Of a DNA stretch of 64,000 bases, positions 32,552 to 58,491 are shown in pieces. The position numbers and the translations under genes were made by a program. The notes beneath the pieces were generated by a model. The model did no database searches, was not told the DNA's origin, and saw nothing but the letters and a program-made list of their open reading frames with translations. Origin of the DNA: Candidatus Bathyarchaeota archaeon (lineage in GTDB: Archaea; Thermoproteota; Bathyarchaeia; Bathyarchaeales; Bathycorpusculaceae); NCBI GenBank assembly GCA_963811105.1, contig CAWEPZ010000002.1, forward strand, positions 192,001 through 256,000, written 5' to 3'. Every line of letters begins with the position of its first letter. Position 1 is the stretch's first letter.

Positions 32552-32779
32552 ATGCAGTACCCTTCTGCGGTCTTAACGACAAGTAAGGGTTTTGCTGTAG
32601 CATCATCAGTAGGCCGAAGTGTTCATTTTGAATCCTATACATTAACTTCCCAACAATCTTCAAATCCTTCTCCCTCCGTTCCAGAGTTTTCTTGGTTGGT
32701 TATTATACCGCTAATGGTTTCAATACTCTTCTATGCTTTGATACTCAGTCAACAAAGACCCACTAAACCAAAACAATAG
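32552..32779 (+). pseudogene. Decayed gene retaining a PEF-type sorting tail
   Basis: SNPSPSVPEFSWLVIIPLMVSILFYALILSQQRPTK; no intact passenger domain upstream. Confidence 0.65.
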
Positions 32780-33038
32780 ACCTTTTCACACGGCAAGGTG
32801 TATCCACTCTCTAACATGAGTTACTAAATTTTAATAAGAAACTTAAAACAAAATAGGTATTTGACTGAAAATGGCAAGGAAACTTTCTAAAGCAGACATA
32901 GCTTTGATTTTTTTTACAGCTATCCTCTTGTTGTCCGTTTATGCCCAAATACAGTATCAAACACATATGTGGTCAGATACCGAACCTTCCTATGCCATTG
33001 ATGCTGACAAATTAACTGAGAAACCAGTAAAGTATTTT

Positions 33039-34191
33039 AGACCTTAGGCGTAATAGTGATGTTAACCCCTAAAATGGGCTTGTTTTAGGTAAAGTAGCAC
33101 AATTGGAAGCCATCATATTTAACAGACATATTTCCGCATGTTGAATAGGCTTATTTGTCCTTAAAGCTAACTTGCCGCCAGGGAAATATCTTGCTCAACT
33201 ACAAAACGCTATCAAGAAGGTCTTCCTTATTTCGATCCTTGACAGGAGTTGAAATCTCAGAATTCGACTCAATCTACTCTAAAGTGCAAACCAAATATGA
33301 TGAATACGAGTCGAAGAGGCTTTCAAGAGAGAACAGAAAACGCAAAGTAGGCGCTGGACACCCTTTCAAGCTACATCTTCAGGAGAGACTGCTTATGTTT
33401 CTGGTCTACTACAGGCTTTACACAACATCCGCGCTATTAGGCATCCTTTTTGACCTGGACCAGAGCAATGTACTCAAAGACATCCATAAACTTGAACCGC
33501 TCTTCAAAGAGGTTTTACCCATACCTAAGAAGCTGCATGAAAAAGTGAAACAACTACAAACAATAGAGGAAATCACGACGATGTTTCCGGAGCTGAAAGC
33601 TTTTGTAGACGCAACGGAACAAGAGATCCCCAGGCCGAAAGCCAAGAAGAAACGCAAAACGCACTACAGCGGCAAGAAGAAAAGGCACACCGTCAAGACC
33701 CAGCTAACCGTAAACGTAGACGGCTTGATAGTCCACCAGACACATCACGTTAAAGGTAGCATGCACGACTACTCTTTGTTTAAGCGCAGTCGCCCACATT
33801 TGCCAAATAATGTTCTTGGCGAAGGTGATCTGGGTTATTTGGGGGTGAAGAAGGATTATCCGCAACTGAACTTTGCGGTGCCTTTCAAGAGGAAAAGCCC
33901 TGGACGAGGCAAACGGGGTGTGGAAGCAGAAGAGCTTCCAGCTGAGCAGAAGGCGTTCAATAACATGCTCGCTAGGGAGCGGGTTGTCTCGGAGCATACG
34001 AATAGTCAGGTGAAAAAGTTTCTGATATGGGGAGGGGAATTCAGGAATCGCCTCAAACATTACAACGTTGCAACGGAGATAGTAAGCGGCATTGTTAACT
34101 TTCGCATAATGGGGACATTAACTGTCTGAAAAAACTTGGGAAAAGCCCAAAGTAAAGCCAAATCCACAAAAAGCAACAACGCCTAAGGTCT
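33039..34191 (+). mobile_element. IS5-superfamily (DDE_Tnp_4 / ISL2-like) insertion sequence
   Basis: Perfect 13-bp terminal inverted repeats AGACCTTAGGCGT / ACGCCTAAGGTCT; 3-bp TTT target duplication. Confidence 0.9.
33155..34129 (+). CDS. DDE transposase (HTH_Tnp_4 plus DDE_Tnp_4)
   Basis: FRSLTG, VDATEQEIPRP, YSGKKKRHTVK, GSMHD, DLGYLG, RERVVSEH. Confidence 0.92.
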   Translation: MSLKLTCRQGNILLNYKTLSRRSSLFRSLTGVEISEFDSIYSKVQTKYDEYESKRLSRENRKRKVGAGHPFKLHLQERLLMFLVYYRLYTTSALLGILFDLDQSNVLKDIHKLEPLFKEVLPIPKKLHEKVKQLQTIEEITTMFPELKAFVDATEQEIPRPKAKKKRKTHYSGKKKRHTVKTQLTVNVDGLIVHQTHHVKGSMHDYSLFKRSRPHLPNNVLGEGDLGYLGVKKDYPQLNFAVPFKRKSPGRGKRGVEAEELPAEQKAFNNMLARERVVSEHTNSQVKKFLIWGGEFRNRLKHYNVATEIVSGIVNFRIMGTLTV

Positions 34192-35134
34192 TTTGTACTA
34201 TCAAACCCCGACCAGTATGTTCTCGAAGTCATAGACGGTGAAGAAAGCTATGTTTATGTTCATTATGACGATACCCAAATCGATGAACTAACAAGACAAT
34301 ACGGTACAAACAACATAGAATACAATGGCTCATACTACACAATCGGGATAGCCTTCGTAGATGCTTTCCCACCGTCAACTTTACCCCATATATTAGCTGG
34401 ATTCGTTATATCTATTTTTGCAATAATTATTTTATCGATTTTTCAGGTTGTAAAGCACTTCAAGCAACCAACAAAATAGACCTTTTCCCACCGTTGGGCG
34501 TATATCCCCACTCTTTCAGATTTTTTGTTTCCCTTAAGGCATTTCCAAAAAATGCTCTAAAAAATAATCTCTTTTCAAAATGCTTTAGAATCTTATTTAG
34601 AAAAGCTATGTTAAACAGTTTCAAAAAGGCTTAAGAATTATATTCTAAAATCTTTTCAAATCATTTCTGAAAGCTTTTTCTAAATTCCCTAAATTTCATG
34701 GAAAACAAGCTCAAAAACAATTATGGCCTAATTTCATTCTTATGTGCATTATGTAAAAAGGGGCTTGTTTTAGGCTTTTTTAGCCATTTAAACTGTAGAA
34801 CACATATTCACTTGTCAATTCCGCTTCACAAGATGCCTTTAATTGGACCTTGATTTTACGTAAACCCACTGTATCAAGGAAAACCTATAAAAAAAAGTTC
34901 AGGTGAAAAATGAAATGAAAAATAAAAGCAAGGATTCAACAAAAAAGGAGCTAACCATAATCAACCGTGAAAATAGAATCATTTAACTTTGCATTAACAG
35001 CTTGAGATTGCATTAGCGATACTAGCACTAATACACCAATAAAACCGGATCATAATACGCGGCTCCCGTCGGCCCTTGCGTTTTTTTGAATAGGTCATGC
35101 CCCCTATCAGAATTGGCACGCACACCGGACGTGT

Positions 35135-36196
35135 TTAGGAAAAATTGTAGAAGCCGAAACCGTTGCAGTAAACGATTTCTTTTGTGTCTCCCCAAATGCC
35201 AACCTGGATGCCTGAGTAGCCTCCGATTTCCCCTCCCTTGAAGTAGAAGTAAAATTGCCAGTACGGATACAGCGTCAAGGGGTCACGAGAGATTTTGCTT
35301 GGGTTGTGAGAGGTTTCATTGCGGTACGGCACCATGGTGAAGTACATTTGGTAGATTGCGTCTGACAGGTCAGGAAGCGCAACTGTCTCGTTCCTGTACT
35401 CGTTGACTATGCGAAACTCAGTGTTCTGAGCAGTCTCCAACGCCAGCTGATATGCTTCCTCAGAATTAAGCGCGCTGGGACCGCTGACACTGTAGATGCG
35501 CCAGTTATCGGTGAATGAATCAAGAACGTTGTTGCGGAACGCTACGTCCACTCTTTTCCATGTCATGTGAACACCGTTTTCAGTGTAGATCCACTGGATC
35601 CGTGTTCTGTCTGCGTCCTTTGAAACCTGAAAGTTTACGTTTCCAACAGTAACGTTCGTGGGTGAGAGCTCCTTAACGGTATTAAGGATGGTTTGCATGG
35701 GCTCAAGATATGAGTTGTTTGTGGGATACAATCGATCAGCGTATGCCTGGTATCGTTGAAGCACGGTTTTGACCTGGCTGAGTAGATCATTTGCTGGTGC
35801 CTCCGAATAGATGGGGTTGCCACGCGGAGCTTCAAAGGTGAAAAGCACTATTTGCCCGTTGTAGAGGATGCTCATTGCATGAATCTTGCTTTCGTTGGCT
35901 TCGAAATCAAAGCTGCGGATTTCCTCTTTCACGAGACCGCAAAATTCGGGCGGGTAGCGGTACGTATTTGATGGATCCTGGGCGGTATTGTAACCAGGTG
36001 GAGGTAAGGGCGAGGTCAAAATGTATTTTGTGAGGTCAAGCCCAACAACACTGGATAAGAATTCGGTCGCCTTGTCTTCAGCCGTGAGTTCTATTGAACT
36101 CTCGGGAGGCACATCAACTGTCAAGACAGCAAATGCCGCAATAACTGCAGGAGCCAAGAAAGCGAGAACAATCAGTGCAACAACTCCTCTACGCAT
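35135..36196 (-). CDS. Secreted hypothetical protein (related architecture to 56408-57553)
   Basis: Signal peptide MRRGVVALIVLAFL; TATA CTTATATC upstream; the longer ORF-track start lies inside the IS110 end. Confidence 0.75.
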   Translation of the reverse strand: MRRGVVALIVLAFLAPAVIAAFAVLTVDVPPESSIELTAEDKATEFLSSVVGLDLTKYILTSPLPPPGYNTAQDPSNTYRYPPEFCGLVKEEIRSFDFEANESKIHAMSILYNGQIVLFTFEAPRGNPIYSEAPANDLLSQVKTVLQRYQAYADRLYPTNNSYLEPMQTILNTVKELSPTNVTVGNVNFQVSKDADRTRIQWIYTENGVHMTWKRVDVAFRNNVLDSFTDNWRIYSVSGPSALNSEEAYQLALETAQNTEFRIVNEYRNETVALPDLSDAIYQMYFTMVPYRNETSHNPSKISRDPLTLYPYWQFYFYFKGGEIGGYSGIQVGIWGDTKEIVYCNGFGFYNFS

Positions 36197-36257
36197 GATT
36201 ATTCCATGCTTAACAACGGACGCCCAAGCGGATATAAGTGTTCTTGTCAAAGTTTCT

Positions 36258-36480
36258 CTTATGTAAGGAAACGATCCAAGGCCAATCCAAACAGACTTCC
36301 GACTACCTTTTTTACTCCACCTCATCCCTTCTTAAATTCCTATTATTCATGTATTTCAGACAACATTCTCTTATCAGCGAACCAAGTCGCACTACGGCTT
36401 CAGCTAACAGCCAAGGAAAACTCCATTCTTGACTAAGCAGATAAACTGCACCAGAGTTTAGAAGATATCCAAAGCTGCCC
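36258..36480 (-). ncRNA. Putative bridge/seek RNA in the IS110 3' non-coding end
   Basis: Two parallel units of hairpin + guide ending AG + AAUG: GCAG-UUUAU-CUGC-UUAGUCAAG (matches repeat A) and GCGA-CUUGGU-UCGC-UGAUAAGAG (matches the IS end ATAAG+AG). Confidence 0.55.
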
Positions 36481-37133: not shown

Positions 37134-38186
37134 TTAACGATTACGCTTCCTAAAATGCCAAAACAAGCCAAATCCCACAACGGCAAAAAACGCCCCAGAA
37201 ACAGCTGCAACAACCGTTGTTGGAAAAGGCTCTGATTCTGCCTCCCCATTGAAGTATACAACCACATTGTGTACGCTGTGTGAATATATAATATCCAACA
37301 CCCATGATTGACTCGTTGATGCGATTGCGTATTCAGTTGGTTTGCCGTCTAAGAACATACTAACACCTTCAGGGTCAAATTCAGGGTCTTTTTCTAGAGT
37401 AATCTTAACGTAACCATTTGTTCCACTGAGACCCTCAGCAGAAAAACTAAGAATACGAGTACTCGCATTGAAATTCAACCCAGTTATAGTCGAATTTGAA
37501 GAAAACGCGGTAATGAAATCCCCAAACGATTTAACACCAAGATTAACGCTTACACTTGTCTCGGGATAGGTGGAATTTCCCATCCATGTTGCCTTAACCT
37601 GATAACTCCCATGCAATGGTTTCCAGACCGTCGAGTATTTACCATAACCATCAGTTTCCACTGACGCTATTTCATTCCACATGGCGTTCTCAATGTAGGT
37701 CTTGCTTGAAAGAACAATCCAAGCATTTGGCACGCCTATGCCATTATAGGTTAAATTTCCGCTAATCGCAACTTCTTGTTCAGTGTAGACTGAGTCACTG
37801 CTCAAAGAAATATGAACGGTGACAGGTGTTTGCTCCCTTACCTCTATTTCCATTTCGCTACTGCCTCCAGTCCCTTGAGCATCGTCAACAGTAACGCCAA
37901 CGCTATAAGTACCAGGTTTAGTATAAGTGTGGTTCACAGTGGCGCCAGTTGCGAAGGCGCCATCTCCAAAATTCCAACTGTAAGTGAAAGCACGTGGTTC
38001 GTGATTTTCGTTCCAGTATTGTTCCCACCATAAAGCGTCGAAACTGACAACATCTCCAACCCTTGGCGTAAGTGGAGAGTAAACAAATGAAGGAGTCGCA
38101 TGAACGATTTGCGCATTCACAGTAGACAGATGAGCTAGCGAAATTAATGAAAAAACCATTATGATTGCTAAAGCTGTTTTTTTCAT
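37134..38186 (-). CDS. PKD-domain surface protein with EPFP-type TM anchor
   Basis: YSWNFGDG..VNHTYTKPGTYSV PKD motif; EPFPTT..GLFWHFRKR tail. Confidence 0.85.
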   Translation of the reverse strand: MKKTALAIIMVFSLISLAHLSTVNAQIVHATPSFVYSPLTPRVGDVVSFDALWWEQYWNENHEPRAFTYSWNFGDGAFATGATVNHTYTKPGTYSVGVTVDDAQGTGGSSEMEIEVREQTPVTVHISLSSDSVYTEQEVAISGNLTYNGIGVPNAWIVLSSKTYIENAMWNEIASVETDGYGKYSTVWKPLHGSYQVKATWMGNSTYPETSVSVNLGVKSFGDFITAFSSNSTITGLNFNASTRILSFSAEGLSGTNGYVKITLEKDPEFDPEGVSMFLDGKPTEYAIASTSQSWVLDIIYSHSVHNVVVYFNGEAESEPFPTTVVAAVSGAFFAVVGFGLFWHFRKRNR

Positions 38187-39265
38187 AGACTCTTGCTCCT
38201 CTGGCGTTTCTTGAAGTAGACTAACAAGCCAGCAAACGATATCGCTAAACTAAGCAGCAACGAAGTTGCCCATGAGGGAAACTCTGGAACTGTTGGAGAG
38301 GAAGTTGGACCAAAATTGGGCATAGTTGGGACTACTGTCGGAGTAGGGATTGTAACTGAAATTGGCAACATAATGGGGTTATTATCTTGGTTGTTTGCGT
38401 CTATGATGTATGGGGTATCACCGATGCCATCTCTATTGGCGTCTGTTCCGTTGTAGTCACTCCAATAATTTTCATTAATTATGTTGACGGACCTTGGATT
38501 TCCCCAAGTGAGATAATACGATTCATTGGCTGAAAACTGAATAGTATTGTTAACATAATTATTTTTGCATATGCTGTTATTGTTGGAACCATAGATGGAT
38601 GTTCCGAGTCCTGAGTTTGTTATGTTATTTCCAATTAATTTGTTGTTGTTTGAATATTGAAAATTAACAGCAGTGTCTTGACAGTTTTTTATTGTATTTT
38701 CTGTAATTGTGTTATTGTTGCTGTTTTGCCAAATCTGTACCCCTTCAACACATGATTCAATGTAGTTGTTTTTTACAGTATTTTCATTTGCGTAATTTAG
38801 TTGGATTGCTGATGAGAGTCCAATTGATTCAAAAGTATTTCCAGTTATTTGATTATTATTGCCAAATACTACTATGCCATGGGTTGCTTGTTTTATTTTG
38901 TTTCCTGAAATGTTGCAATAATTTGCCCCAAGTGAAATTCCGTCATAACCATCAAATATAGTCAAGCCTGTTACAGTCACATTATCTCTCTTCACCTTCA
39001 AGCCAGCTGTCACATCAATTACGGTTGCATCCCTATCTTCCCCAACCAATGAGACCGATTTGTCGACTACTGGATTTTCCACATAAGTGCCTCTCTTAAC
39101 GAATATTGTATCTCCAGCGTCTGCAGCGTTAATGGCTTCTTGAATAGTGGGGAAATCGTCTGGTACATTGATTGTTTTAGATTCAGCCTTCACGGGCAAA
39201 TATACAATGAAACATGAAGTTGCCAAGAAGACGAGAACAAATAGCAATGTAGCATTCTTTCTCAT
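38183..39265 (-). CDS. NosD/beta-helix surface protein with PEF tail
   Basis: VPDDFPTIQEAIN, NYWSDYNG, DGIGDTPY, VPEFPSW..GLLVYFKKR. Confidence 0.88.
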   Translation of the reverse strand: MRKNATLLFVLVFLATSCFIVYLPVKAESKTINVPDDFPTIQEAINAADAGDTIFVKRGTYVENPVVDKSVSLVGEDRDATVIDVTAGLKVKRDNVTVTGLTIFDGYDGISLGANYCNISGNKIKQATHGIVVFGNNNQITGNTFESIGLSSAIQLNYANENTVKNNYIESCVEGVQIWQNSNNNTITENTIKNCQDTAVNFQYSNNNKLIGNNITNSGLGTSIYGSNNNSICKNNYVNNTIQFSANESYYLTWGNPRSVNIINENYWSDYNGTDANRDGIGDTPYIIDANNQDNNPIMLPISVTIPTPTVVPTMPNFGPTSSPTVPEFPSWATSLLLSLAISFAGLLVYFKKRQRSKSL

Positions 39266-41517: not shown

Positions 41518-41606
41518 CTAAAAGGGTTCTCGTCAAGATTTCTTGACTAACTTAGAAATAAACTTAGTCAAACTTTCTTGACTGATTTTTTTCGATGCCT
41601 TCTGAA
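41518..41606 (-). repeat. Orphan RRHRK tail + family A site (19-bp spacer) + TATA
   Basis: Boxes 41567-41582 and 41532-41547; AGAAGGCATCGAAAA at 41589-41603. Confidence 0.9.
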
Positions 41607-41642
41607 AAACTGTAAAGGTCACAATGGCGACGGTGGCTCTTG

Positions 41643-45955: not shown

Positions 45956-45976
45956 CTTACCAATTCTACTGCTGTA

Positions 45977-46040
45977 ACTTTATCCTTAAAAGATTTGCAG
46001 TAAAGATTCCTTGACTAAACTCAGTCAAACTTTCTTGACT
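45977..46040 (-). repeat. Family A site plus promoter, 63/64 nt identical to 54520-54583
   Basis: ACTTTATCCTTAAAAGATTTGCAGTAAAGATTCCTTGACTAAACTCAGTCAAACTTTCTTGACT. Confidence 0.93.
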
Positions 46041-46600: not shown

Positions 46601-46707
46601 AAAAGCAAATACCTTACCTAGACGATCTCTGAGGGGTATGGTCTACCGCTAAAAATGTCAAAATTGGCAGTTACTAAGATGAAATTGTTGCAAGAAGTTA
46701 TCGAAAT

Positions 46708-48074
46708 CTAGTCAGAATTTCTTGATGATTCTTTCATTGTCAAAGATTGCTTTGTAGTCTTTTTAGCTATAATCAAAGCAATTGGAATGGCGAGTAGTAA
46801 GGGTAGGATTGTCAACCAAGAAAACTCAGGAACGGCAGGTGTAGAGGTTGGTATGACTGTTGGTATAGATGCGTTATAGTCAGGTATTGCCTGTAAATTT
46901 GGCGCGGTTAAGAAGGGAATGAACGTAACATTACCTAAGTTGAAGTCATTCTTGAAGTCGTGGATCATTCGGCTGATTGTTTGTTGGTCAGTTGTTCCCC
47001 ACCAGTTTTGGGAAGCATCCACATCATTTGGGGCATTAACCGTTAAGTTGACTCCGCCCTCAATGTTATTTTGTTTGATTGTAACATGGGCTTCTTCATC
47101 TACAATTATTCCTGGGCCGCTAAGAGTGTTATTTTGGATTTGCACATTAGGGGTTCCGATTCCGCCTATTAATTTGACGCTTGACACGGTGCAACCCGAA
47201 ATTACGTTGTTTGAAATTAACGCGTTACCAGCAACCACAATTCCATAAGAAGTGTAAAGTGGTCCCTCTAGCCTTCCAACTTCTGGCGCAATCAAACCTG
47301 TAATGTTGTTGTTTGAAATAACCATTGTACCCTTTTCAAAACCCAAGTTTATCGCCGCTCCACCGTTCCACCCACCAGCCGCCAAAGAGATAGTATTGTT
47401 GTTTATTATCGGCGAACCTTCAGACGAATCAGCGTAAGGATTAGTGCGCACTCCATAATTAATAATATTTGACGAAATTATTGGTGAACCTCCAATGCTT
47501 AATACCCAAATTTCGTTTCCTTCGATTTGAGGTGTACCAGCCTCAACTTGGATGTCAGGAAAATTCTTCTGACCTAAAATTATTGGCGATCCCCCGTCAA
47601 TGTCTATCGTGCTCACGTTTACGTTGTTAGCTATTTTTGTTGAAGAATTTTTTATGGCAATAATCGCATTATTACTTGAAGAAGAAAAGATTGCGTTTTC
47701 GATTATACTGCCTTTTTCAGTTTGTTCGTTCCAAGATATACTTGCAGCGGTGAAAGTTATGCCTCCGCTGTCAAAGTAAATTGGGTTAGTAGTAGTACCA
47801 ACTGCAACAAAGGTACCGTTCACTTGTATGTAGTAATCATTCAGGTGCACTGTAACTCCGGCTTCAACTGTTAAGGTTACTCCACTAGTTATCAAGATAG
47901 GTCCATCAAGGATGTAAGGACTGTAGATTTGTTTCCATGTAGTGTCCGTGGTCATGACATTGTAACGTGTGTTCCAATTTGAGCTGAAACAAGCCCTCCT
48001 GCGTTAATAATGAATAGACTTAAGCATGTAAGAGGAAGAACTAGCAATAATACGAATTTCTTGTTAAAGCCCAT
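46708..48074 (-). pseudogene. Beta-helix surface protein with PEF tail; frameshift near 47960 separates the signal peptide
   Basis: MGFNKKFVLLLVLPL..AQIGTHVT (start 48074) is out of frame with TTDTTW..NWWG..VPEFSWL; degenerate family A site at 46711-46745. Confidence 0.78.
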
Positions 48075-48096
48075 AGTCATTAAGCGTTGTCAAGCA

Positions 48097-48504: not shown

Positions 48505-48556
48505 GTCAAGAATTCTTGACTAATTCTAATTAGTGGTTAGTCAAAAGTTTCTTGAC
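48505..48556 (-). repeat. Family A site (19-bp spacer) directly after an RSHRKT gene
   Basis: Perfect palindrome GTCAAGAATTCTTGAC at 48505-48520; second box 48540-48556, 4 nt from the stop at 48561. Confidence 0.92.
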
Positions 48557-48560
48557 CTGA

Positions 48561-49247
48561 TTATTTTGGAGTTTTTCGATGGCTTCTAAACAGCAGTAAA
48601 GCACCAATAACAATCGCCAAGATTGCAGCTGCTGCAATCGCTAAAATATACGCTGTAGGAAAAGCAGCTCTTTCGTTAATATTTGAATTACTTGGAGTCG
48701 TAAAAGATTGAGTTGGTGTAATTGTTGGAGAAGCGGTGTCTATGGTAAAGGTAACTGTGCTATTGTTGTTCATATAATAGTTGGATGGCACTCCTTGGGC
48801 TTGATGAGCGTCTTGATAATAGCTTACGCCGTATACAAAAACTTGGAAAGTGTGACTGCCCTCAGATAAATTAGTTAGTGTACCTTGAAGAGTAATTGGG
48901 TCTTTGCTGTTAAGACTTTGAAGTGAATCAAATTCCTTTTCAGCGATGGTAACTTTGGGGTTACTGTCCAAGTAGTACTCAACTGAAAACAATTGCCCAT
49001 TATAACCTCCATAATCAAACCATGAAGAAGGCTTCTGCACCACAAGAGAGTACGGTATATCCTTTGTATTGTAGATAGTACCGTTTTCTGGTAATGTAAC
49101 TGTAAGTTTAGGCAAACTTGTGTCAGGCGTTGAAGGACCAACATAAGAAAATGTAGCTGGGTTTCCAACAGCTAACTCTACTGCCGATATACTAATAATA
49201 GCTAACATTAAAGACGTTAATGAAATTATCAACATTGTTTTTTTCAT
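48561..49247 (-). CDS. Ig-like surface protein with RSHRKT anchor
   Basis: Signal peptide + GNP, LSEGSHTFQV, Thr/Ser linker, TM + FRSHRKTPK. Confidence 0.82.
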   Translation of the reverse strand: MKKTMLIISLTSLMLAIISISAVELAVGNPATFSYVGPSTPDTSLPKLTVTLPENGTIYNTKDIPYSLVVQKPSSWFDYGGYNGQLFSVEYYLDSNPKVTIAEKEFDSLQSLNSKDPITLQGTLTNLSEGSHTFQVFVYGVSYYQDAHQAQGVPSNYYMNNNSTVTFTIDTASPTITPTQSFTTPSNSNINERAAFPTAYILAIAAAAILAIVIGALLLFRSHRKTPK

Positions 49248-49276
49248 ATACTTTACCAACTTCCAACTTTTTGAGG

Positions 49277-50333: not shown

Positions 50334-50480
50334 TTAGCGAAGCAGGAATAGGTTAATCAAATTTTCTTGACTGATTCTTTCAGTGTCAAACATTTCCTTG
50401 TGTCTCTTTCTAACGGTCGCCAATGCAATTGGTATTGTGAGTAGTATGGGTAGGATTGTTAACCAAGAAAACTCAGGAAG
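50334..50480 (-). pseudogene. Orphan PEF tail running into a degenerate family A site
   Basis: PEFSWLTILPILLTIPIALATVRKR out of frame directly after the RRHRKTAKPS* gene; boxes at 50356-50371 and 50385-50400. Confidence 0.8.
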
Positions 50481-51783
50481 GCTTAGCGGTTTTTCGATGC
50501 CTTCTATTAAGCAGCAAAAAGCCAATAGCTATTAACGTTACTAAAACTATGGCAATTATTGTAATCGTTTGGGCAGAAATTTGGTTCACCGGAGTAGCCA
50601 CTGGCTGAGTTACTGTGAAATTGGCTGTTTGAGTTGCCATATTGCCAAAGGTGTCATTGGCGTAAATGGCAATGCTATGTGTGCCGCTGGTAACGTTTGC
50701 AACGGTAAAGTTGCCTGCTACAGTAACGTTCTGTTGTCCATCCAGAGAATAACCAATCCAGAAAAGAGGCTTATCAGTGCTAAAATCAAAAGGCAAATTG
50801 GAAGAAGTGAATGTTTGGTTATCTGGCAGTAGCAATTCAACGGTTGGCTTAGTTGTTCTGTAAAGGTAAGAGGTGTAGTTGAAAGGTGACATGAGCGGAT
50901 AATGGTCTTTAATCAGGGCAACAATTACATATGATTCATTGCCTATTCCTGAATCATCAATCATTTTGGCATTTGGATATTTGTTCTGGTAGTCACTCCA
51001 ATAGTTTCCGCCTGAAGGGTAACCATCATCCCAAATGTTATTTGAACCTATTGAGTAAACTTGTTGGGAGTTATTTATGAAATTATTATGGTAAATTTTA
51101 TTGTAAGAAGTGCTTTCAAAAAGTGCAATTCCCGAAGTCGCTAAGACAATGGGATTTGAGCTATTCTTTACGGTATTTTCAAGAATTGTGTTGTTTTTGG
51201 TTAGGAATAATCGAATGCCATGATAGTTTTTATCTAATATATTTCTCTTTATTGTGTTTTGTCCGCCGCCTTCAATGTAGATTCCAGCGGTAAACTGATC
51301 AAGTGAAAGTATGCCGTTTCCAGTGTCGGAAATGGTGTTGTTTTCTACGTTAATATTGGAGCAACTGCTAAGGTAAACTCCCATGGAGCTTCCTGTAATG
51401 ATGAAGTTTTTTACGGTCACATTTGAGGTATAAGAGACCCCTGGCACTGGGTCTAACCCTTCTGCTGGATATACTGGAGGACTTATTTTTATGCCGCCAT
51501 TACCGCTCTCGTCAGAACCGCCAATGATTGAGTGTCCATTTCCATCAAGCACGGCATTGCTTTTTTGAATGGTTAAGCTTCCGCGTATATCTCCGGTGAG
51601 GGAATAGGTGTTTCCTGTTTGCTGAATAGGAGCCGTCGCTGGAGTTATTGTTCCATCGCTGCTAATGTTGTAACTGGTGTATCCGTTGATTTCTCCAGCA
51701 CTTGGTTGAATGCAAACTACAGAGCCAACAAAAACGAGGACAAGAAATAACGTGAAAAGAGCATTACCCTTGATTTTTGCCAT
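50473..51783 (-). CDS. NosD/beta-helix surface protein with RRHRKT anchor
   Basis: ISSDGTITP..LDGNGHSI, WDDGYPSGGNYWSDY, Ig-like domain, TM + NRRHRKTA. Confidence 0.88.
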   Translation of the reverse strand: MAKIKGNALFTLFLVLVFVGSVVCIQPSAGEINGYTSYNISSDGTITPATAPIQQTGNTYSLTGDIRGSLTIQKSNAVLDGNGHSIIGGSDESGNGGIKISPPVYPAEGLDPVPGVSYTSNVTVKNFIITGSSMGVYLSSCSNINVENNTISDTGNGILSLDQFTAGIYIEGGGQNTIKRNILDKNYHGIRLFLTKNNTILENTVKNSSNPIVLATSGIALFESTSYNKIYHNNFINNSQQVYSIGSNNIWDDGYPSGGNYWSDYQNKYPNAKMIDDSGIGNESYVIVALIKDHYPLMSPFNYTSYLYRTTKPTVELLLPDNQTFTSSNLPFDFSTDKPLFWIGYSLDGQQNVTVAGNFTVANVTSGTHSIAIYANDTFGNMATQTANFTVTQPVATPVNQISAQTITIIAIVLVTLIAIGFLLLNRRHRKTAKPS

Positions 51784-51806: not shown

Positions 51807-51861
51807 AATAAAAGGTTTGCAGTTAAACAATCTTGACTGAGCTTAGTCAAACTTTCTTGAC
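51807..51861 (-). repeat. Family A site (8-bp spacer) plus TATA 23 nt before ATG 51783
   Basis: Plus strand GTTAAACAATCTTGAC-TGAGCTTA-GTCAAACTTTCTTGAC. Confidence 0.9.
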
Positions 51862-51999
51862 GTAATTGGATGCTTATTTTGTGGAATTGATGCAAGAGCA
51901 AGCTCTCTGTCGAAAACCCTTTGGCTGGAACCTTCATATTGAAAACATAGCTTGCCTATATTTTTTTGTCTCGAAATTATTTTTTTTAATTGTCTTTTC

Positions 52000-52640: not shown

Positions 52641-52759
52641 TTTCAAATATTTCTATGAAGAATTAATATAAAGACTTTTGCAGCATTTCTAAGCGTTATC
52701 TGGATCATTGATAACCACATTACCAACGGCTCAAAACAATTTTCACAGTCAAACTTTCT

Positions 52760-52895
52760 CTTATGTAAGGAAACGATCCAAGGCAACTCCAAACAGACTT
52801 CCGACTACCTTTTACTCCATTTCATCCACACTTAAATTTCTTTCACCTATGTATTTCAGTCAACATTCTGTTATCAGCGAACCAAGTCGCCTACG
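52760..52895 (-). mobile_element. Second relic of the IS110 3' non-coding end, at the same position in a family A box
   Basis: CTTATGTAAGGAAACGATCCAAGGC...TTATCAGCGAACCAAGTCGC homologous to 36258-36395; preceded by GTCAAACTTTCT (52748-52759). Confidence 0.85.
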
Positions 52896-53365
52896 CCATT
52901 GATTGTCAATTAGGGAAGCGGGAATTCTGGCAAATGGCCACGTAAAACGTCGCCGTGGACCTTAGCGACGAAACCCATCCGCTGCATCGCAAACATAAAC
53001 AGGATATCTGGTGTAACGCATCGATTGAATTTAAAACGGTAATTACTCTCAAAGACACATCTTTTTATTAACACGCAGCTGGTACCCGCCATAACCCAGC
53101 CGTTAAGGATCTTGCCCTCAACAGCGTTTAGTGGTAAATACCAAACAGTCATGTTTTCATCTATGAAGCCTAGAATTAAGCCTTGGCCGTTATGTCGACG
53201 CACAAACCCACAAGCAATATCAACATTTAAGCCGAGTAACTTCTGGATAGAAATGAATTAGGACTGTAGTCAATCAAACCTGGAGCCAAAGGAATTACTC
53301 ACGCTCAATAGGAAATAAAGTACTTCCAAAAGCTAAGACCTACATTTCACTCCGCAGATGAGTAC

Positions 53366-53420
53366 CTTGATAAAGTTAAGTTTATCAAGCTTTTCATTTA
53401 AAATTTAGTTTATGCTTTTC
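53366..53420 (-). repeat. Repeat family B copy with a perfect 9-6-9 palindrome
   Basis: CTTGATAAA-GTTAAG-TTTATCAAG at 53366-53389, just after the RRHRKTINQA* gene. Confidence 0.9.
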
Positions 53421-53421: not shown

Positions 53422-54498
53422 TTACGCTTGATTGATAGTTTTTCGATGCCTTCTATTAAGCAGTAAGCTAATGGCACCTATCAAGATTACGACAGCCACT
53501 ATAACAGTAATCGTTAGTGGGGAGACACTATTAATTATTGTAGTAGGTGTTGGCGTTGGAGCTATTGAGTTAATATCGACTGGTTGTCTTAACGGATAGT
53601 GGTCAACGTTGTTTTGGTCAATGACATATGTTCCACTTCCATTGTAGTCACTCCAATAGTTGTTTTTCCAAGTGTTAATTGAAGGAACATAAATTGGCAT
53701 GTTTGCTTTAGGATTGCGCTGATTAATCTGCTGGTTAATTTCGTTAAGGTTTTGATAATGGGAAAACAGGTCTTGAGCTTGTATAGTATTTCCAATTAAG
53801 CTGTTTTGATAAAAGGAGTTATTTGAAGAAGTGATAAAATTAATACCACTTCCAAAGTTAGCAATTCTGTTGGCTTCAATAAAGTTGTTATTGCTGTCTT
53901 CTATACGAAAAGCGCTTGCCTTCAAAGAAGAGCAAAATAGGTTGTCGTTATGGATAATTGAAGAATTAGTGGAAATCAGGAATATTGCAGCTTGGTCAAA
54001 CCTATCTTCTAAGTTGTTTCCTTCAACCAATACATTAGTGGAATGTGATATTTCAAATCCAAACGCATATGTGGTTACTGAGTTGTTTAAGAGATTGATA
54101 TTTGAGGAACTGTACACCTCTATGGCAGAATCAAAGCCTGAGAGAACAAAGTTCTTGACAGTTATCCCATTTACAAAGTCAAGTCTAATTCCTTGTGACC
54201 CAGCTCCCTTGATAGAGTGGTTTTCACCATCTAGAATAGTATTAGCTCTTTGAACCACAATGTTGTATACTGTAGTGTTGAAAAGAGAGTATGTTTCTGC
54301 TGATAAGTTGCTGGTTAAATGATATTCATTGCTTCCAATTCTGCTAATAGGTGCATCTGATGGATCAACGCTCCCATCACTTGCTATGACAATAGACCTC
54401 ACATTAGGAGGACCCAAGGGATTAGCTTGGGCAACTTCAAGTGGCAAAAGGAATAATATTAAGCAAATTAACGACACAGCAACAAATACTTTCTTCAT
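53422..54498 (-). CDS. NosD/beta-helix surface protein with RRHRKT anchor
   Basis: AQANP signal, IASDGSVDP, NYWSDYNG, DHYPL, TM + NRRHRKT. Confidence 0.88.
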   Translation of the reverse strand: MKKVFVAVSLICLILFLLPLEVAQANPLGPPNVRSIVIASDGSVDPSDAPISRIGSNEYHLTSNLSAETYSLFNTTVYNIVVQRANTILDGENHSIKGAGSQGIRLDFVNGITVKNFVLSGFDSAIEVYSSSNINLLNNSVTTYAFGFEISHSTNVLVEGNNLEDRFDQAAIFLISTNSSIIHNDNLFCSSLKASAFRIEDSNNNFIEANRIANFGSGINFITSSNNSFYQNSLIGNTIQAQDLFSHYQNLNEINQQINQRNPKANMPIYVPSINTWKNNYWSDYNGSGTYVIDQNNVDHYPLRQPVDINSIAPTPTPTTIINSVSPLTITVIVAVVILIGAISLLLNRRHRKTINQA

Positions 54499-54519: not shown

Positions 54520-54583
54520 ACTTTATCCTTAAAAGATTTGCAGTAAAGATTCCTTGACTAAACTTAGTCAAACTTTCTTGACT
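54520..54583 (-). repeat. Family A site plus promoter (near-identical to 45977-46040)
   Basis: GTAAAGATTCCTTGAC-TAAACTTA-GTCAAACTTTCTTGAC. Confidence 0.93.
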
Positions 54584-54690
54584 AAGTTGTGATAACAGCT
54601 AAAAACGATTGGCAAGTTTTTTGCAGAAAAAAGCTAATATTTGCAAAGAAACAAAATAAGAAGAGAAACTGATGTCTCTGCCCGTGCAGG

Positions 54691-55104
54691 TCAGTTATCG
54701 CCAATCCATATTACGTCAGTTAGATTTTTGAAATGTTCATCGCCAGTTAAGATCTTGCAGCCCTTTACTTTTGCGGTAGCGTAAATGATCGCATCAAATA
54801 AGCCAGGAGTATTCTGTTTGAGATTTTTTGCGTTCTTGATAAGCTCTAATTGGCATTTTGCCGCTTCCAAAGCAATTATAGTATCAATTGGAATGATTGC
54901 TGACGCGTTTGTTATTATCTCTATCCAGCCGGTGATAGTCTGTTCATCTGCGCCTTCTCTGAAGAACTTTCTAGCAGTCTCCGCCAAGACTATATCCGGA
55001 GTATATACTTCCTCGGCTTTTTCAAGAAGGTCTTTTACCTTAGAGCCTACCTCGCTGCCTAAAAGTAATTCAATCCATGCATAAGTGTCAATTACGATCT
55101 TCAC
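54691..55104 (-). CDS. vapC: VapC-family PIN toxin
   Basis: IVIDTYAWIE, VLAE, GLFDAIIYATA, LTGDEHF. Confidence 0.9.
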   Translation of the reverse strand: MKIVIDTYAWIELLLGSEVGSKVKDLLEKAEEVYTPDIVLAETARKFFREGADEQTITGWIEIITNASAIIPIDTIIALEAAKCQLELIKNAKNLKQNTPGLFDAIIYATAKVKGCKILTGDEHFKNLTDVIWIGDN

Positions 55105-55306
55105 CGCGGTCTTCCTCGGTAAATGGCTTAATTTGCCCTCGAGCGGCTCCATATGCACTTTCTAAAACTACTTTGCGTTGTTTTTTTATTAGTAACTGTA
55201 TTGTTTCATCAAGACTTTCAGCTTTCAGTCTTTTCCGAGTGTTTTCAAGGCTTTCAGCGGTTCTTTTTGAAACTCGAATTGTGGTGGCTTCGGTCAATAG
55301 TATCAC
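55088..55306 (-). CDS. vapB: VapB-type (RHH-like) antitoxin
   Basis: TTIRVSKRT..SLDETIQLLI; overlaps vapC. Confidence 0.8.
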   Translation of the reverse strand: MILLTEATTIRVSKRTAESLENTRKRLKAESLDETIQLLIKKQRKVVLESAYGAARGQIKPFTEEDRGEDRN

Positions 55307-55380
55307 TGCTAAATATTAATGATGCATGCATATAAGCATATATATTTCACAATTTCAGCAATTTGCGTATAATTGACAGG

Positions 55381-55482
55381 CTAATTATAGTTAGGTGCTA
55401 GTCTTTTCCTTACGATAGTCAGTGCGATTGTTGTTGTGAGTAGTATGGTTAGGATTGTTAACCAAGAAAACTCAGGAACGGT
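55381..55482 (-). pseudogene. Orphan PEF tail
   Basis: TVPEFSWLTILTILLTTTIALTIVRKRLAPNYN* beginning ~35 nt after the stop of 55519-56304, with no passenger. Confidence 0.8.
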
Positions 55483-55518
55483 AACTACCCGCTAAAAGAA
55501 ACACAATAGAAACTTTGC

Positions 55519-56304
55519 TCATTTGTTAGGTATTTTTGGATGCTTCTTTCTAATTATGAGAACTAAAGTAATTATAGCGATAACTAATGCAAGTATTAAC
55601 ACAATTAGAAGAGCTATGTTTTGGTTAATAGCATTATGAGAATTAGAGCTAATTATTGTTTGAGTTTGAGTTGGAGTTTGTAATGTGTCAATGGTAAAAT
55701 CTACAGATGATGATCCTTCCATGAAGTAATAGTTGGAATAGACATTGAGAAAGTTGCCAACAATTATGCCACTTGGACTAACAGGTTGCTTAACATTTTG
55801 TCTTCCAGTCTCAAACTCGTACAATGCGCTTGCATAGACTGTGACTGTTTTTGGTCCATCCGCTATATTTGAAAAAGTAACAGAGAAGGGTAAGGTCTGA
55901 TTGACAAGTTGGCTATTTGATCCAAAATCAATGGTAATATTATCTGATTGCCAACTTGGTTTAACACAAATTCCTTGAAAAGTAATATTGATGGGGTGAT
56001 AAATTGAATAAGAGTGATAATTAGTTGGTGCCTCTAAAGTCAAATTAAAGGTTAAAGTTAAGTTGTTTGAAGATAGAACAGTTTTGTTAATCATAGATGT
56101 GATTTCTATTTTTGGTTGCTCTGTTCCCTTTTGAGGTATTATCTCCGTTGGGAAATATTCAGTTGTATAAGAATCACCTTTATGGTAAGTTGAATGGGGT
56201 GTAGGTGCAACATTAACAATTGACTCAGCAGACACTGAAGGAATCAACAAAATTAGAATGATAATTGAGCTGACTGGTATTATCTTTGATTTCATATTCT
56301 CCAT
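55519..56304 (-). CDS. Secreted Ig-like protein with C-terminal TM anchor
   Basis: Signal peptide, IADGPKTVTVYA, VDFTIDT, TM + RKKH. Confidence 0.78.
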   Translation of the reverse strand: MENMKSKIIPVSSIIILILLIPSVSAESIVNVAPTPHSTYHKGDSYTTEYFPTEIIPQKGTEQPKIEITSMINKTVLSSNNLTLTFNLTLEAPTNYHSYSIYHPINITFQGICVKPSWQSDNITIDFGSNSQLVNQTLPFSVTFSNIADGPKTVTVYASALYEFETGRQNVKQPVSPSGIIVGNFLNVYSNYYFMEGSSSVDFTIDTLQTPTQTQTIISSNSHNAINQNIALLIVLILALVIAIITLVLIIRKKHPKIPNK

Positions 56305-56407
56305 TATTAGGAATAAACTTTGATACTTTTAACTCTCCCATAGGAACAGCCTGTTCCGCTAGAAGAACACTTGATTAACCAAATATTTGAACAGTTTTTA
56401 TTTTCAC

Positions 56408-57553
56408 CTAAACTTGTTTCCGATATCTCTGAACCGAAAAGATACATGTTATGGCGATAATGGCAAGTATCAGTGCTCCGGCGATAACAAAGAAGTCTGA
56501 GGTGGATATCAACTGTGAGTTTACTTGCTGATTAGATGTATTACTGGGTAAATTGCTTGTTGAGTTAGTTTGCAGGCTGCTGGTTGGTTGGGAAACAGCC
56601 GAAGATGTAGTGGTCGATTGGTTGATTGTTGCTTGATTTTCATTCCACTCAACTGGATTGGGGTTAACTCCAACAACGCTTAAAGGTGTTCCAAGCATCT
56701 GGGCACTTGCTTGACCAGAAGCTGCGAGTACATTAACGGTTAAGCAAAGACTTGAATCATTATACAGCATTAACCAGCAAGGAACGTACACATTGCTATT
56801 TTGAGATGACAAAGTCATGCGCGAACTATCAAGCGTGATGTTGTTTGCAAAAATAATTGTATCGTTGTTTTTAGGTTTAGAAAAGACGTTAGTTAAAAGG
56901 TAGTTAGCAGCAATTTTTTCCGCTTGATCTTGTGAAACCTTGACATCGATGTTGCCAAGAGTATGATCTAGACTGCTTCTTAATCTGTAAAATAATCCAT
57001 AATTGAACTCCAGATTTAGTCCTGCATATTCAAGTCCATTCCAAGTATAAGACCAGTGATAAATTGTTGAATTAACAGCGTTTGGAATACTAAGGACACT
57101 TTGGGTTAATGTTAGGTTTCCATAAGTAATATTTCTGCTCGATCCTAGTGCACTAAATGTTTTCGTAAAAGGAGATTCGTCTAATTGATTGGCTTTTCCA
57201 AAACCTTCTAGAGAATGAATGGCAGCCGCAGTTCGATTCTCATATACGCCGGTTGAAGGTTGGCCTGAAATCGGTCTTAGGTCTAACTCTATGAATTTGC
57301 CGTCTGTAAATTGAACTACTGTGCTTAGTTTGCAAGAGTCTGAGGTTAATTCATAAGTTACAACCACGCTTGAAGTCATGTTAGTTGTTTTTGGCTCTGA
57401 TAACTGATAGTTGCTAAAATCAAGAGGTAAAATATTTGTTATGTAATTAAGGGCTTGTTGCTCAAGCGTAGGATCTTGAGCTCGCATGGGAGGCATTAGC
57501 CCCAAAATAAACAGAAGACCGATAGCGAAGACAATGAGGTGCATTTTCTTCAT
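56408..57553 (-). CDS. Secreted hypothetical protein with C-terminal TM anchor
   Basis: Signal MKKMHLIVFAIG..MRAQ, Ser/Thr/Asn linker, TM + RYRK. Confidence 0.78.
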   Translation of the reverse strand: MKKMHLIVFAIGLLFILGLMPPMRAQDPTLEQQALNYITNILPLDFSNYQLSEPKTTNMTSSVVVTYELTSDSCKLSTVVQFTDGKFIELDLRPISGQPSTGVYENRTAAAIHSLEGFGKANQLDESPFTKTFSALGSSRNITYGNLTLTQSVLSIPNAVNSTIYHWSYTWNGLEYAGLNLEFNYGLFYRLRSSLDHTLGNIDVKVSQDQAEKIAANYLLTNVFSKPKNNDTIIFANNITLDSSRMTLSSQNSNVYVPCWLMLYNDSSLCLTVNVLAASGQASAQMLGTPLSVVGVNPNPVEWNENQATINQSTTTSSAVSQPTSSLQTNSTSNLPSNTSNQQVNSQLISTSDFFVIAGALILAIIAITCIFSVQRYRKQV

Positions 57554-57673
57554 TAGGCATCCACAAAATACATTCTTGCATGTCATATTTAGCTCTCCTA
57601 CTGGAACAAAGTGTTCCAAAACTGGAACAGATACATTTCATAGACATCACAGATATTCAACTTGACTGATTTT

Positions 57674-58294
57674 CTATGTCAAACATTTCTTTGTAGTTTT
57701 TTTCACAACTATAGATAGAGCAATTGGAATGGCGAGTAGTAAGGGTAGAATTGTTAACCAAGAAAACTCTGGAACAGAAGGAGATGGGGAATTTTTGGGG
57801 GGTAGAGATGGAGAGGGTGATGTTGTTGGTTGTGCTACGGGCGACGACTGAACAGTAACAACTATTCCCATTGGCTGAAAAGACTGGTATTCGCTTTCTC
57901 CGTTTGAATCGGTTATCCGCAACGAAATGCCGTATCTTCCAAGAGTGGATTCAACGAATTTGAATGTTGATATATTGGAATTTGGAACGGCAACTGTAAA
58001 CCAGCGCTCAGGTGGTAAAGCTGTGTCTAAGTAAGTAATATACCATTGGTAAGTGTATGGAGGTGTTCCACCTTTTCCGTGTGCGGTGAACTCAGTTGGT
58101 TGGTTTATTCCAGTTGTTCTCCACCATGGTTGGTCTACAATCACTGTTGGGCTGTCAATTGCCAATACCGCATACTTTGGTTTAGTTCCATAACTTCCAA
58201 TTAGATTAGCCATAGTTAACTCAGCACACGGAATTATGCTAAGCAATGATAACAAGATAAGGCAAGAGACAAATAGTTTTCTCATCCATGTCAC
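57674..58294 (-). CDS. PKD/Ig-like surface protein with PEF tail
   Basis: GGTPPYTYQWY, VPEFSWLTILPLLLAIPIAL; stop lies within a degenerate family A site (57661-57690). Confidence 0.82.
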   Translation of the reverse strand: MTWMRKLFVSCLILLSLLSIIPCAELTMANLIGSYGTKPKYAVLAIDSPTVIVDQPWWRTTGINQPTEFTAHGKGGTPPYTYQWYITYLDTALPPERWFTVAVPNSNISTFKFVESTLGRYGISLRITDSNGESEYQSFQPMGIVVTVQSSPVAQPTTSPSPSLPPKNSPSPSVPEFSWLTILPLLLAIPIALSIVVKKTTKKCLT

Positions 58295-58332
58295 TTATTT
58301 CTACTAAGAGTTATCTTCATAAGAGTTTTTTC

Positions 58333-58491
58333 GTCAAACTTTCTCGACTATATTCTTTTTTGTCAAACATTTTTCTGCACTTTCTTCCTAATTATCGCCA
58401 GTGCAATTGGTATTGTGAGTAGTAAGGATAGAATTGTTAGCCAAGAAAACTCTGGAACAGAAGGCGTTGGAGTTGGTATACCTTGATTCAT
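58333..58491 (-). pseudogene. Orphan PEF tail + family A site + promoter of the next gene
   Basis: PTPTPSVPEFSWLTILSLLLTIPIALAIIRKKVQKNV* (stop 58363-58365); box GTCAAACTTTCTCGAC at 58333-58348. Confidence 0.8.

Follow-up and report, generated by a model that had tools for sequence, protein, structure and literature searches.

A PEF-type C-terminal tail and a putative operator dyad repeated as one DNA block among surface-protein genes of a Bathyarchaeia archaeon

The stretch of DNA analyzed here (the window, 64,000 nucleotides, positions 192001-256000 of contig C2 in our genome set, G000:C2:192001-256000) comes from a Bathyarchaeia archaeon and carries several copies of a short block in which a C-terminal protein tail of the PEF type (Pro-Glu-Phe) is joined to a 16-bp dyad, GTCAAG-N4-CTTGAC, called family A in the following. 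The genome comprises 3.49 Mb in 15 contigs with 41% G+C, and positions outside the window are given as contig and coordinate. A Pfam scan of 78 non-overlapping open reading frames (ORFs) of the window showed a conserved core with genes for the proteasome, the exosome, ribosomal proteins and tRNA synthetases, which fills the window up to ~27 kb, followed by a variable island with NosD beta-helix, PKD and Ig-like proteins and many ORFs without any family. Two transposases (33155-34129 and 43072-43917) are located in the island as well, along with several toxin-antitoxin pairs. The right half of the window is one of two islands of exported surface-protein genes in this genome (C2 ~219-265 kb and C11 ~610-643 kb), in which the genes stand in tandem on the same strand. 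Their products have a common layout of a predicted N-terminal signal peptide, a passenger (of the NosD beta-helix, PKD or Ig-like kind, or unknown), a Pro/Thr/Ser linker and a tail. Signal peptides and transmembrane (TM) helices were judged by inspection.

A six-frame scan of the window detected seven C-terminal tails composed of PEF, a hydrophobic stretch and a basic cluster, with P codons starting at 32681 on the plus strand and at 38287, 46830, 50477, 55476, 57772 and 58455 on the minus strand. Five of the minus-strand tails (46830, 50477, 55476, 57772 and 58455) read VPEFSWLTIL(P/S/T)LLL..IPIAL...(R/K)n, and those at 32681 and 38287 are more distant variants. From the translations and by inspection the tail architecture is VPEFSW, 17-20 hydrophobic residues, R/K-rich residues and a stop. 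The tails and the genes belonging to them are the following (lengths of proteins in amino acids, aa):

46701..46849, minus strand: block copy on a 415-aa beta-helix-like protein (gene 46708-47955), nhmmer 133.8 bits; PEF codons 46822-46830, half-site 46739-46748, degenerate dyad 46711-46726
47952..48080, minus strand: ORF of 42 codons with the signal peptide of the 415-aa gene, in a different frame from the 415-aa ORF in the assembly
50347..50489, minus strand: passenger-less block copy straight after the stop of a 436-aa NosD-type gene; dyad 50356-50371
50473..51783, minus strand: this 436-aa NosD/Ig surface protein, with its own TM helix and RRHRKTAKPS end (...LLNRRHRKTAKPS and stop)
55399..55483, minus strand: partial passenger-less copy, tail only and no dyad; nhmmer 71.3 bits, model positions 15-99
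57647..57790, minus strand: block copy on an intact 206-aa protein with signal peptide (57674-58294); half-dyad 57652-57666
58325..58475, minus strand: passenger-less block copy with a 57-codon ORF (58363-58536) and no signal peptide; dyad 58333-58348
32552..32779, plus strand: diverged PEFSW tail on a 75-codon ORF, a truncated gene remnant with ~45-59 codons of passenger C-terminus
38183..39265, minus strand: 360-aa NosD protein with an attached tail of another PEF type (VPEFPSW...), outside the repeated block

The stop codon of the 436-aa gene falls within the PEF codons of the orphan block 50347..50489. The partial copy 55399..55483 sits behind a 261-aa gene (55519-56304) that is itself TM-tailed, and a VapBC pair follows in the place of the dyad. 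The copy 58325..58475 retains an IPTPTPS linker and is located upstream of the 206-aa gene. As contigs from two public sequencing runs span this orphan with both flanks (X1 record 8, 58186-58726, and X6 record 24, 58327-59300), its arrangement is no artefact of the assembly. A contig of run X1 also has one additional base at 47962, which unites the frames of the signal-peptide ORF and the 415-aa ORF, and the split of the 415-aa gene may thus be an assembly error or a strain difference. The remnant at 32681 gave weak matches to the C-termini of full-length proteins and has an insertion sequence (IS; DDE_Tnp_4, 33155-34129) downstream. Two further PEF-type tails of other variants, passenger-less or frameshifted and adjoining family A promoters, were seen on contig C12 (C12:7766-7873 and C12:8636-8750, reading IPEFPTLVV... 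and APEFPLFTV...).

An earlier note on this DNA had pointed to four passenger-less tails and to four tails that run straight into a family A site. Both observations hold: the open frame upstream of PEF is only 59 (32681), 17 (50477), 5 (55476) and 30 (58455) codons long, and the tails 46830, 50477, 57772 and 58455, which have a TTTGAC half-site at or near their stop, are followed after a spacer of 11-13 nt by a dyad or degenerate dyad (46711-46726, 50356-50371, 57652-57666 and 58333-58348). Tail and dyad belong to one block of ~130-150 nt, of which nhmmer found 11 copies in the genome, nine of them full (127-151 bits), one partial and one diverged (C11:636084-636220). In a BLAST search of the island against the genome the block gave matches of 113-137 nt with 77-87% identity and E values from 1e-15 to 1e-32, a similarity far beyond chance. 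The block consists of the last linker codons, V-PEF-SW, the helix, the basic cluster, ...AATGTTTGAC (stop or half-site), the spacer and GTCAAGAAAnTTTGAC, so that its 3' end is the first family A dyad. In both BLAST and nhmmer the homology extends from the V/I-PEF codon, give or take 20 nt of linker, to a few bases past the first dyad, and in comparison with the copy C11:623992 the V/I-PEF codon is its starting point in every case. The claim that the tails are nearly identical in DNA fits the best pair. For this pair a difference of 3 in 56 nt had been given between 46779-46834 and 57720-57775, and at these positions 37 of the 56 nt differ, the number falling to four after a shift by one base (57721-57776). 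As a family, the module-type copies show a pairwise identity of 75-89% over 75 nt, and of 62-85% over the whole block. The copies are spread over three contigs and two islands with a star-like tree, and the copy C11:623992 is closest to the rest, with 75-85% identity to the eight other full copies.

Intact signal-peptide genes carrying the block are the 206-aa gene (57674-58294), a 331-aa NosD-type gene on C11 and a 399-aa gene on C11 (the diverged copy), and the 415-aa gene (46708-47955) is the carrier that is frameshifted in the assembly. Hydrophobic N-termini were found by inspection on the first three, and that of the 415-aa carrier is in frame in run X1 only. Six of the ten copies with a readable upstream side have no passenger (50477, 55476, 58455, C11:638913, C11:932272 and C4:~133), and one more copy lies at a contig end with its upstream side unreadable (C2:666868). 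Three of the passenger-less copies (50477, 55476 and C11:932272) stand directly behind complete genes, and the orphan C11:638913 retains the last part of a NosD domain (NIDNYPLMKPYN). The sizes are bimodal: PEF is preceded either by a full gene or by no more than 59 codons, and the latter applies to all seven orphans, namely the six of the module type and 32681. Gaps of 1 nt relative to the other copies, in the copy 50347..50489 (PEF at 50477) and in C11:932272, each destroy the usual stop, three prolines are changed to threonine in the copy 55476, and PEF is replaced by PEL in the C4 copy. These changes suggest that the orphan copies are under relaxed coding constraint and decaying.

The conservation of the tails in DNA exceeds what the amino acids require. 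Where two copies agree in an amino acid, they also use the same codon in 523 of 748 comparisons (0.70), versus 0.29 expected from the codon usage of the genome. The count includes ten mis-registered pairs of the C4 copy, which raise the denominator by 14 and leave the numerator unchanged. Several of the fixed codons are uncommon for their amino acid in this genome: GAG (usage 0.29) is found in 10 of 10 copies, TCT (0.18) in 10 of 10, CTA (0.14) in 9 of 10 and CTC (0.11) in 9 of 9 Leu codons. The passengers are unalignable and the tails are far less diverged, so the idea of a tail evolving apart from its passenger, for which the earlier note had named equally diverged synonymous sites as the refutation, was not refuted. 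Among the four attached passengers BLASTP showed a relationship only between p623992 and p636200, both NosD proteins on C11 (27% identity over 186 aa), with E > 0.03 for the rest.

Homologs of two of the passengers carry other tails in related genomes, a comparison that the earlier note had proposed. Two orthologs of the 206-aa passenger (63% identity; G036 and G050) terminate in a PEY tail in one case and a PEI tail in the other, and the helices differ as well; homologs of the 415-aa passenger (35-47% identity) have plain TM and basic ends, with PEFSW in no complete C-terminus among the nine best loci of such homologs. Unrelated passengers with a common block here and homologs with other tails in the relatives argue that the tails have been exchanged independently of their passengers. 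For the 436-aa gene we read the loci L162-L170, of which L164 was unusable. The eight usable homologs and a paralog within the genome (56% identity) each end in a TM tail of their own, and a PE-type tail is absent from the 200 nt downstream of all these nine genes. The homolog in G016 ends with HRKTAKPSQ and a stop, similar to the native ...RRHRKTAKPS. The lack of a downstream PE-type tail in the relatives suggests that the block behind the 436-aa gene is specific to this genome, either as an addition or as the remnant of a lost neighbour.

The DNA word for PEFSW, CCWGAGTTTTCNTGGYTR, occurs 11 times in this genome versus 0-4 times in each of 40 genomes of the genus, seven of which hold it with 11 copies altogether; these genomes are a sample and mutually related, so the counts across them are not independent. 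A BLAST search with the whole block matched 9 of 30 relatives, in all cases on the PEFSW core except for one 24-nt match to the downstream half. The amplification of the block is limited to this genome. The tails in the relatives are built of PEFSW, helix and basic cluster, and about half of those read end with (L)RHRKT; 17 of 18 distinct ones are attached to frames of 147-446 codons, and the remaining one is an orphan in G015. In a wider protein search frames below 100 aa made up 12 of 126 rows from relatives versus 6 of 11 rows from this genome, these six including the query itself and the one contig-end copy. In G053, the genome with the closest relative found (96%) of the archaeosortase described below, a single block match (83% over 114 nt) sits on the ortholog of the C11 331-aa NosD-type gene, with neighbours syntenic with the C11 island. 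The synteny comparison showed the C11 island to be partly conserved in G053 and the C2 island not to be conserved there. The copy C11:623992 would be the best candidate for the source of the others.

Family A usually occurs as two dyads 24 bp apart, the proximal one ending 8 bp ahead of a TATA-like box (TTTTAA or TTTTAT). The spacing is specific, since GTCAA-N6-TTGAC is found 33 times in the genome, eight of them in the window, versus 3-9 times for other spacings. A model of the pair together with the TATA-like box gave 27 nhmmer matches at E < 1e-4, with a concentration in the two islands (C2:219-265 kb and C11:610-643 kb). In 22 of these 27 cases an ORF of 50 codons or more lies within 90 nt downstream, and 18 of the 22 ORFs combine, by inspection, a hydrophobic N-terminus with a TM helix and a basic C-terminus. 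In the relative G012 dyad and box stand right behind a gene ending with PEFSW...RRQRKTS and a stop. Examples in the window are:

51807..51861, minus strand: typical family A promoter upstream of the 436-aa gene, with dyads 51846-51861 and 51822-51837, 24 bp apart, then 8 bp and TTTTAT
54528..54582, minus strand: family A pair upstream of a 358-aa NosD gene (53422-54498), 93% identical to the promoter 45946-46040
45985..46039, minus strand: family A pair upstream of a 181-aa gene (45410-45955)
41519..41617, minus strand: orphan RRHRKK fragment (...FFRRHRKKSVKKV and stop), then a family A pair, upstream of a 433-aa gene (40183-41484)
27378..27453, plus strand: orphan RHRKT fragment, then two family A dyads (27414 and 27438)

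From its position we infer that family A is a putative operator or upstream promoter element of a surface-protein regulon of ~20 genes, and it is best read as such and not as a mobile repeat. The tails abut the operator because of the dense head-to-tail arrangement of the genes. In frame, the dyad encodes V-K-K-V-stop, and four surface-protein genes end inside a dyad (...VKKV or ...VKKL and stop) or at a degenerate dyad (...IVKGD and stop), where the operator supplies the basic C-terminus and the stop (C11:641036, C11:619811, C12:37897 and C2:664438). As a general stop codon the dyad was discarded, with only 7 of 269 oriented sites closing a frame of at least 100 codons (background ~1%), four of these seven being clear surface-protein tails; its doubling as a gene end is occasional. 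Directly downstream of the orphan block at 50477 and its dyad lies a gene on the minus strand (49800-50273) for a 157-aa protein with weak HTH_11 and HTH_23 (helix-turn-helix) matches, of which a DNA copy with 75% identity exists at C11:1423829-1424329. This protein is a candidate for the regulator that binds the dyad.

A second tail family, RRHRKT, shows the same pattern. Between the 239-aa gene 48561-49280 and its C11 paralog the protein identity is 49%, and the first 600 columns of the DNA alignment show 40-65% identity. In the last three 60-column windows (~180 columns) 48 of 55, 52 of 60 and 59 of 60 positions are identical. This high-identity stretch covers the linker, the TM helix, RSHRKTPK, the stop and the dyad, and the similarity stops right past the dyad:

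48535..48731, minus strand: linker, TM helix, RSHRKTPK tail, stop and dyad of the 239-aa gene, 91% identical to the C11 paralog

Passenger-less RRHRKT fragments were also found just ahead of dyads at four places, 27383, 41603 and 63029 in the window and C11:622087. Thus, the homogenisation concerns the block of tail plus dyad and not PEF alone. Just past the stops of several RRHRKT-tailed genes an element of ~50 nt (...GATGAAAAGCTTGATAAACTTAACTTTA) was seen in both orientations (12471-12524, 30203-30256, 53369-53419 and 62938-62988), and a similar word follows a PEFSW-tailed gene in the relative G001 (locus L035).

With respect to the sorting enzyme, the statement of the earlier note that no archaeosortase is present holds for the window, where none of the 78 ORFs matched the exosortase/archaeosortase Pfam family, and does not hold for the genome, which has a sole gene of this family on C11 (C11:1397845-1398639, 363 aa). 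The protein scores above the cut-off with PF09721 (45.3 bits, cut-off 25.7) and, in hmmscan, with TIGR04178 (54.5 bits, cut-off 23), which gave 58.7 bits (cut-off 23) in a six-frame search of the genome. It stays below the cut-off with its best match, the thaumarchaeosortase TIGR04297 (78.4 bits, cut-off 250), and with ArtC TIGR03762 (38.6 bits, cut-off 100). Using tblastn, relatives of this protein were found in 118 stretches, and of the best 80 most are titled Bathyarchaeota or Bathyarchaeia. The tails themselves reach 8.5, 9.7, 10.3 and 14.9 bits with the PEF-CTERM model TIGR03024 in four cases, below the cut-off of 23, and the fifth tail (38186-38308) gave no match to it. Archaeosortase C recognises PEF-CTERM (PMC5244752), and each archaeosortase subfamily has its own motif (PMC6098224). 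The profile scores point to a PEF-CTERM-like signal with a divergent enzyme, outside the curated PEF-CTERM/ArtC pair, and the 363-aa archaeosortase would then process the tails.

We lean towards ectopic recombination or gene conversion, with the dispersed operator as the anchor, as the process that grafted tails onto passengers and left decaying passenger-less copies, and we infer both the mechanism and its direction. A block of ~130-150 nt would have been copied to at least ten places in this genome alone, with the dispersed dyad serving as 3' homology for the ectopic recombination or gene conversion. A recipient with a similar Pro/Thr/Ser linker or a PE-type tail would undergo a clean tail swap, as proposed for the 206-aa and 415-aa genes, and as the block would have replaced the old tails, unrelated passengers would now have one tail in common. 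In the absence of 5' homology the tract would end illegitimately, which would place the block behind a complete gene with its own tail (50477, 55476 and C11:932272) or cost the passenger; either outcome would leave passenger-less tails, now decaying. More tentatively, and with doubts of our own, the regulon operator might double as a portable recombination anchor, in a prokaryotic kind of exon shuffling that re-tails passengers for archaeosortase anchoring and leaves orphans where the far end finds no homology. As this 16-bp dyad comes after almost all of the surface-protein genes, recombination starting at it would carry the adjacent tail over to other genes. The earlier proposal of an anchor that travels with the repeat as a constant module is retained in so far as the tail and the first dyad form one DNA block with sharp ends on unrelated passengers. 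It is given up for the travelling itself, as family A is promoter-proximal and no terminal inverted repeats, target duplications or recombinase were found in the islands.

Several points weigh against this recombination. No donor-recipient pair and no pre-event allele was seen directly, and the copies are only 62-85% identical, which means that the events are not very recent or that the divergence is fast. The sole and weak hint of a block-less allele is a 329-nt contig of public run X2, 92.5% identical to 50486-50793, whose 21 extra letters enter a dyad and not the PEF tail, and this contig could come from a paralog or from another species. In general the contigs of the four public runs are short and most of their joints link different copies of block or promoter, so most joints are cross-mapping and not structural variants; a joint from 51844 to 52747, which skips the HepT/MNT pair, was not used, as dyad-like sites also stand ahead of the 52747 repeat elsewhere in the genome. 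Among the pieces listed, the orphans at 50477 and 55476 are spanned by no contig, which speaks neither for nor against them. Since the 415-aa gene is intact in run X1, some of the decay may be assembly error, and the one copy at a contig end (C2:666868) has an unreadable upstream side. The role of the dyad as an operator would follow from its position, and the scores of the tails with TIGR03024 are below the cut-off. At the 50477 junction the native ...CCTTCC and the GTTCCTGAG of the block overlap by TTCC, and a microhomology deletion of a neighbouring gene would fit this junction equally well. At least two orphans, 32681 and C11:638913, keep remnants of their passengers and look like plain truncations instead of block insertions.

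These last points also belong to plain gene decay, in which whole-gene duplicates would have lost their passengers by unrelated deletions, IS and toxin-antitoxin insertions, with remnants next to a needed downstream promoter not yet deleted. The transposases and toxin-antitoxin pairs in the island, the passenger ends retained by the two truncated orphans, the frameshifts and Pro-to-Thr changes in orphan copies, the possible microhomology deletion at 50477 and an enlarged, repeat-rich genome all agree with it. Nevertheless we regard decay as an unlikely explanation of the whole, because it leaves unexplained that one block is found on unrelated passengers whose homologs in relatives have other tails, and that old paralogs show a sharp step in identity at tail plus dyad. 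The remnants are also bimodal with no mid-sized ones seen, and the eight usable 436-aa homologs and the in-genome paralog have no PE-type tail downstream. It is improbable that the block is a non-autonomous element similar to a miniature inverted-repeat transposable element, or a portable 3' cassette of sorting signal, stop and operator that inserts behind ORFs. In its favour, at least ten copies of uniform size (~130-150 nt) exist in two islands and on three contigs, their tree is star-like, three of them stand directly behind complete genes, and the 8-nt word TTTTCTTG is present close to each end, in opposite orientations. By inspection, a terminal inverted repeat is not convincing beyond this common 8-mer and target-site duplications are absent at the three junctions read. 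Furthermore, the 5' end varies by 0-38 codons, every copy lies in the surface-protein islands in gene orientation and is not scattered, and the 3' end is a promoter element with ~20 occurrences also without a tail. This candidate was rejected for the missing inverted ends and target duplications, and no sign of transposition was found.

Passenger-less tails could also be kept for a function, as small tail-anchored membrane peptides or as extra upstream promoter DNA. In 6 of 6 aligned copies the TTTGAC half-site at the tail stop pairs with the first half of the dyad as an inverted repeat, and two orphans have start codons with open frames of 57-75 codons. A function is still quite improbable, as the orphan ORFs have no signal peptide, two have lost the stop by 1-nt gaps and one has lost the dyad altogether. 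An RNA element in particular was rejected with no Rfam match in the whole window at gathering thresholds, an RNAalifold value of -6.9 kcal/mol for six copies and a compensatory change in 0 of 13 predicted pairs. A mechanism resembling an integron or shufflon, with family A dyads as site-specific recombination sites and tails shuffled between cassettes, would account for tandem same-strand genes with a palindromic site after each and for the toxin-antitoxin pairs interspersed as in chromosomal integrons, and integrons are reported in Archaea (10.1101/2022.02.06.479319). Such a mechanism is extremely improbable here, as none of the 16 Phage_integrase (PF00589) matches of the genome lies inside either island, the nearest being a broken 93-aa fragment ~12 kb off, and the dyads keep a fixed distance of 8 bp from TATA-like boxes in the fashion of promoters. 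All tails but one are on the gene strand, which does not fit switching by inversion, and the idea was rejected for want of a recombinase in the islands.

Other features of the window were recorded along with the block. Genes of HepT/MNT, VapBC-like PIN, further PIN-like and HicB-like toxin-antitoxin systems are scattered among the surface-protein genes (52000-52646, 54691-55306, 58674-59210, 61171-61554 and 62188-62403). An rve-type integrase/transposase gene (281 aa, 43052-43969) has a 93% identical copy at C2:521127-522049, which suggests that this IS inside the island has been active recently. A repeat family represented by 30283-31130 and 60809-61206 is up to ~850 nt long with 79-91% identity, and over 30 complete or incomplete copies of it are distributed across many contigs. 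Tandem 76-nt pieces (C9:7360-7953) belong to this family, which overlaps a Pfam-less 177-aa ORF (30512-31045). Another dispersed repeat, 52747-53252 and 36243-36396 (85-91% identity), has copies on C4, C6, C9, C3 and C1, opens with the dyad-like GTCAAACTTTCTC and covers a Pfam-less 97-aa ORF (52910-53203). ARAGORN found no tRNA genes in the window, where a 57-nt direct repeat with 91% identity (11271-11327 and 12105-12161) has an end resembling the T-arm and 3' end of a tRNA. A look for public RNA runs covering 55300-59300 listed none. The genome is bigger than those of its fellows in the genus (3.49 Mb vs 1.0-3.2 Mb) and repeat-rich, and much of the pattern looks like recombination and decay in such a genome.

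In summary the locus would represent a Bathyarchaeia-specific PEFSW version of an archaeosortase sorting signal together with a divergent archaeosortase, and a candidate regulon operator, GTCAAG-N4-CTTGAC, ahead of ~20 surface-protein genes. It offers a clean and countable case in which a sorting signal seems to have been exchanged as a DNA block between unrelated genes, with the exchange apparently tied to a regulatory site and not to a mobile element, and this would explain how the cell surface of uncultured archaea can be re-equipped quickly.

Of the known systems, PEF-CTERM (TIGR03024) with archaeosortase C (TIGR03762) is similar in its tripartite tails at the extreme C-terminus with a Pro-Glu-Phe signature, a helix and a basic cluster, in its carriers, which are predicted to be Sec-exported surface proteins, and in the presence of an enzyme of the exosortase/archaeosortase family in the genome. 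The pair was reportedly first described by Haft and co-workers in 2012, and the family has been defined in Euryarchaeota. In the present case the host lineage is Bathyarchaeia, the signature is longer (V-P-E-F-S-W-L) and both tails and enzyme score below the cut-offs. The exchange itself is similar to segmental gene conversion among paralogs, in which a short gene end is nearly identical in DNA, the central parts are beyond alignment and the identity changes in sharp steps; the conserved ends of the vlp/vsp genes of Mycoplasma and of the opa genes of Neisseria are examples. Here the 239-aa gene and its C11 paralog show such a sharp step and the PEF block has defined ends, the codons of the tract are identical at 0.70 versus 0.29 expected while the passengers are unalignable, and the relatives differ at the tract (PEY or PEI on the 206-aa orthologs, non-PEFSW ends on the 415-aa homologs and no downstream block at the 436-aa homologs). 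What differs is that the tract spans a 3' sorting signal and the operator of the next gene, and that the block also stands behind complete genes and has left passenger-less copies, with no link to phase or antigenic variation shown. Integron cassettes with attC sites share the tandem same-strand genes, an imperfect palindrome after each and the toxin-antitoxin pairs among them, and differ in that the islands have no integrase, the palindromes are paired and linked to TATA-like boxes and each gene has a promoter of its own. The locus combines known kinds, a sorting signal of the archaeosortase type and the concerted evolution of gene ends, and is not a new molecular machine.

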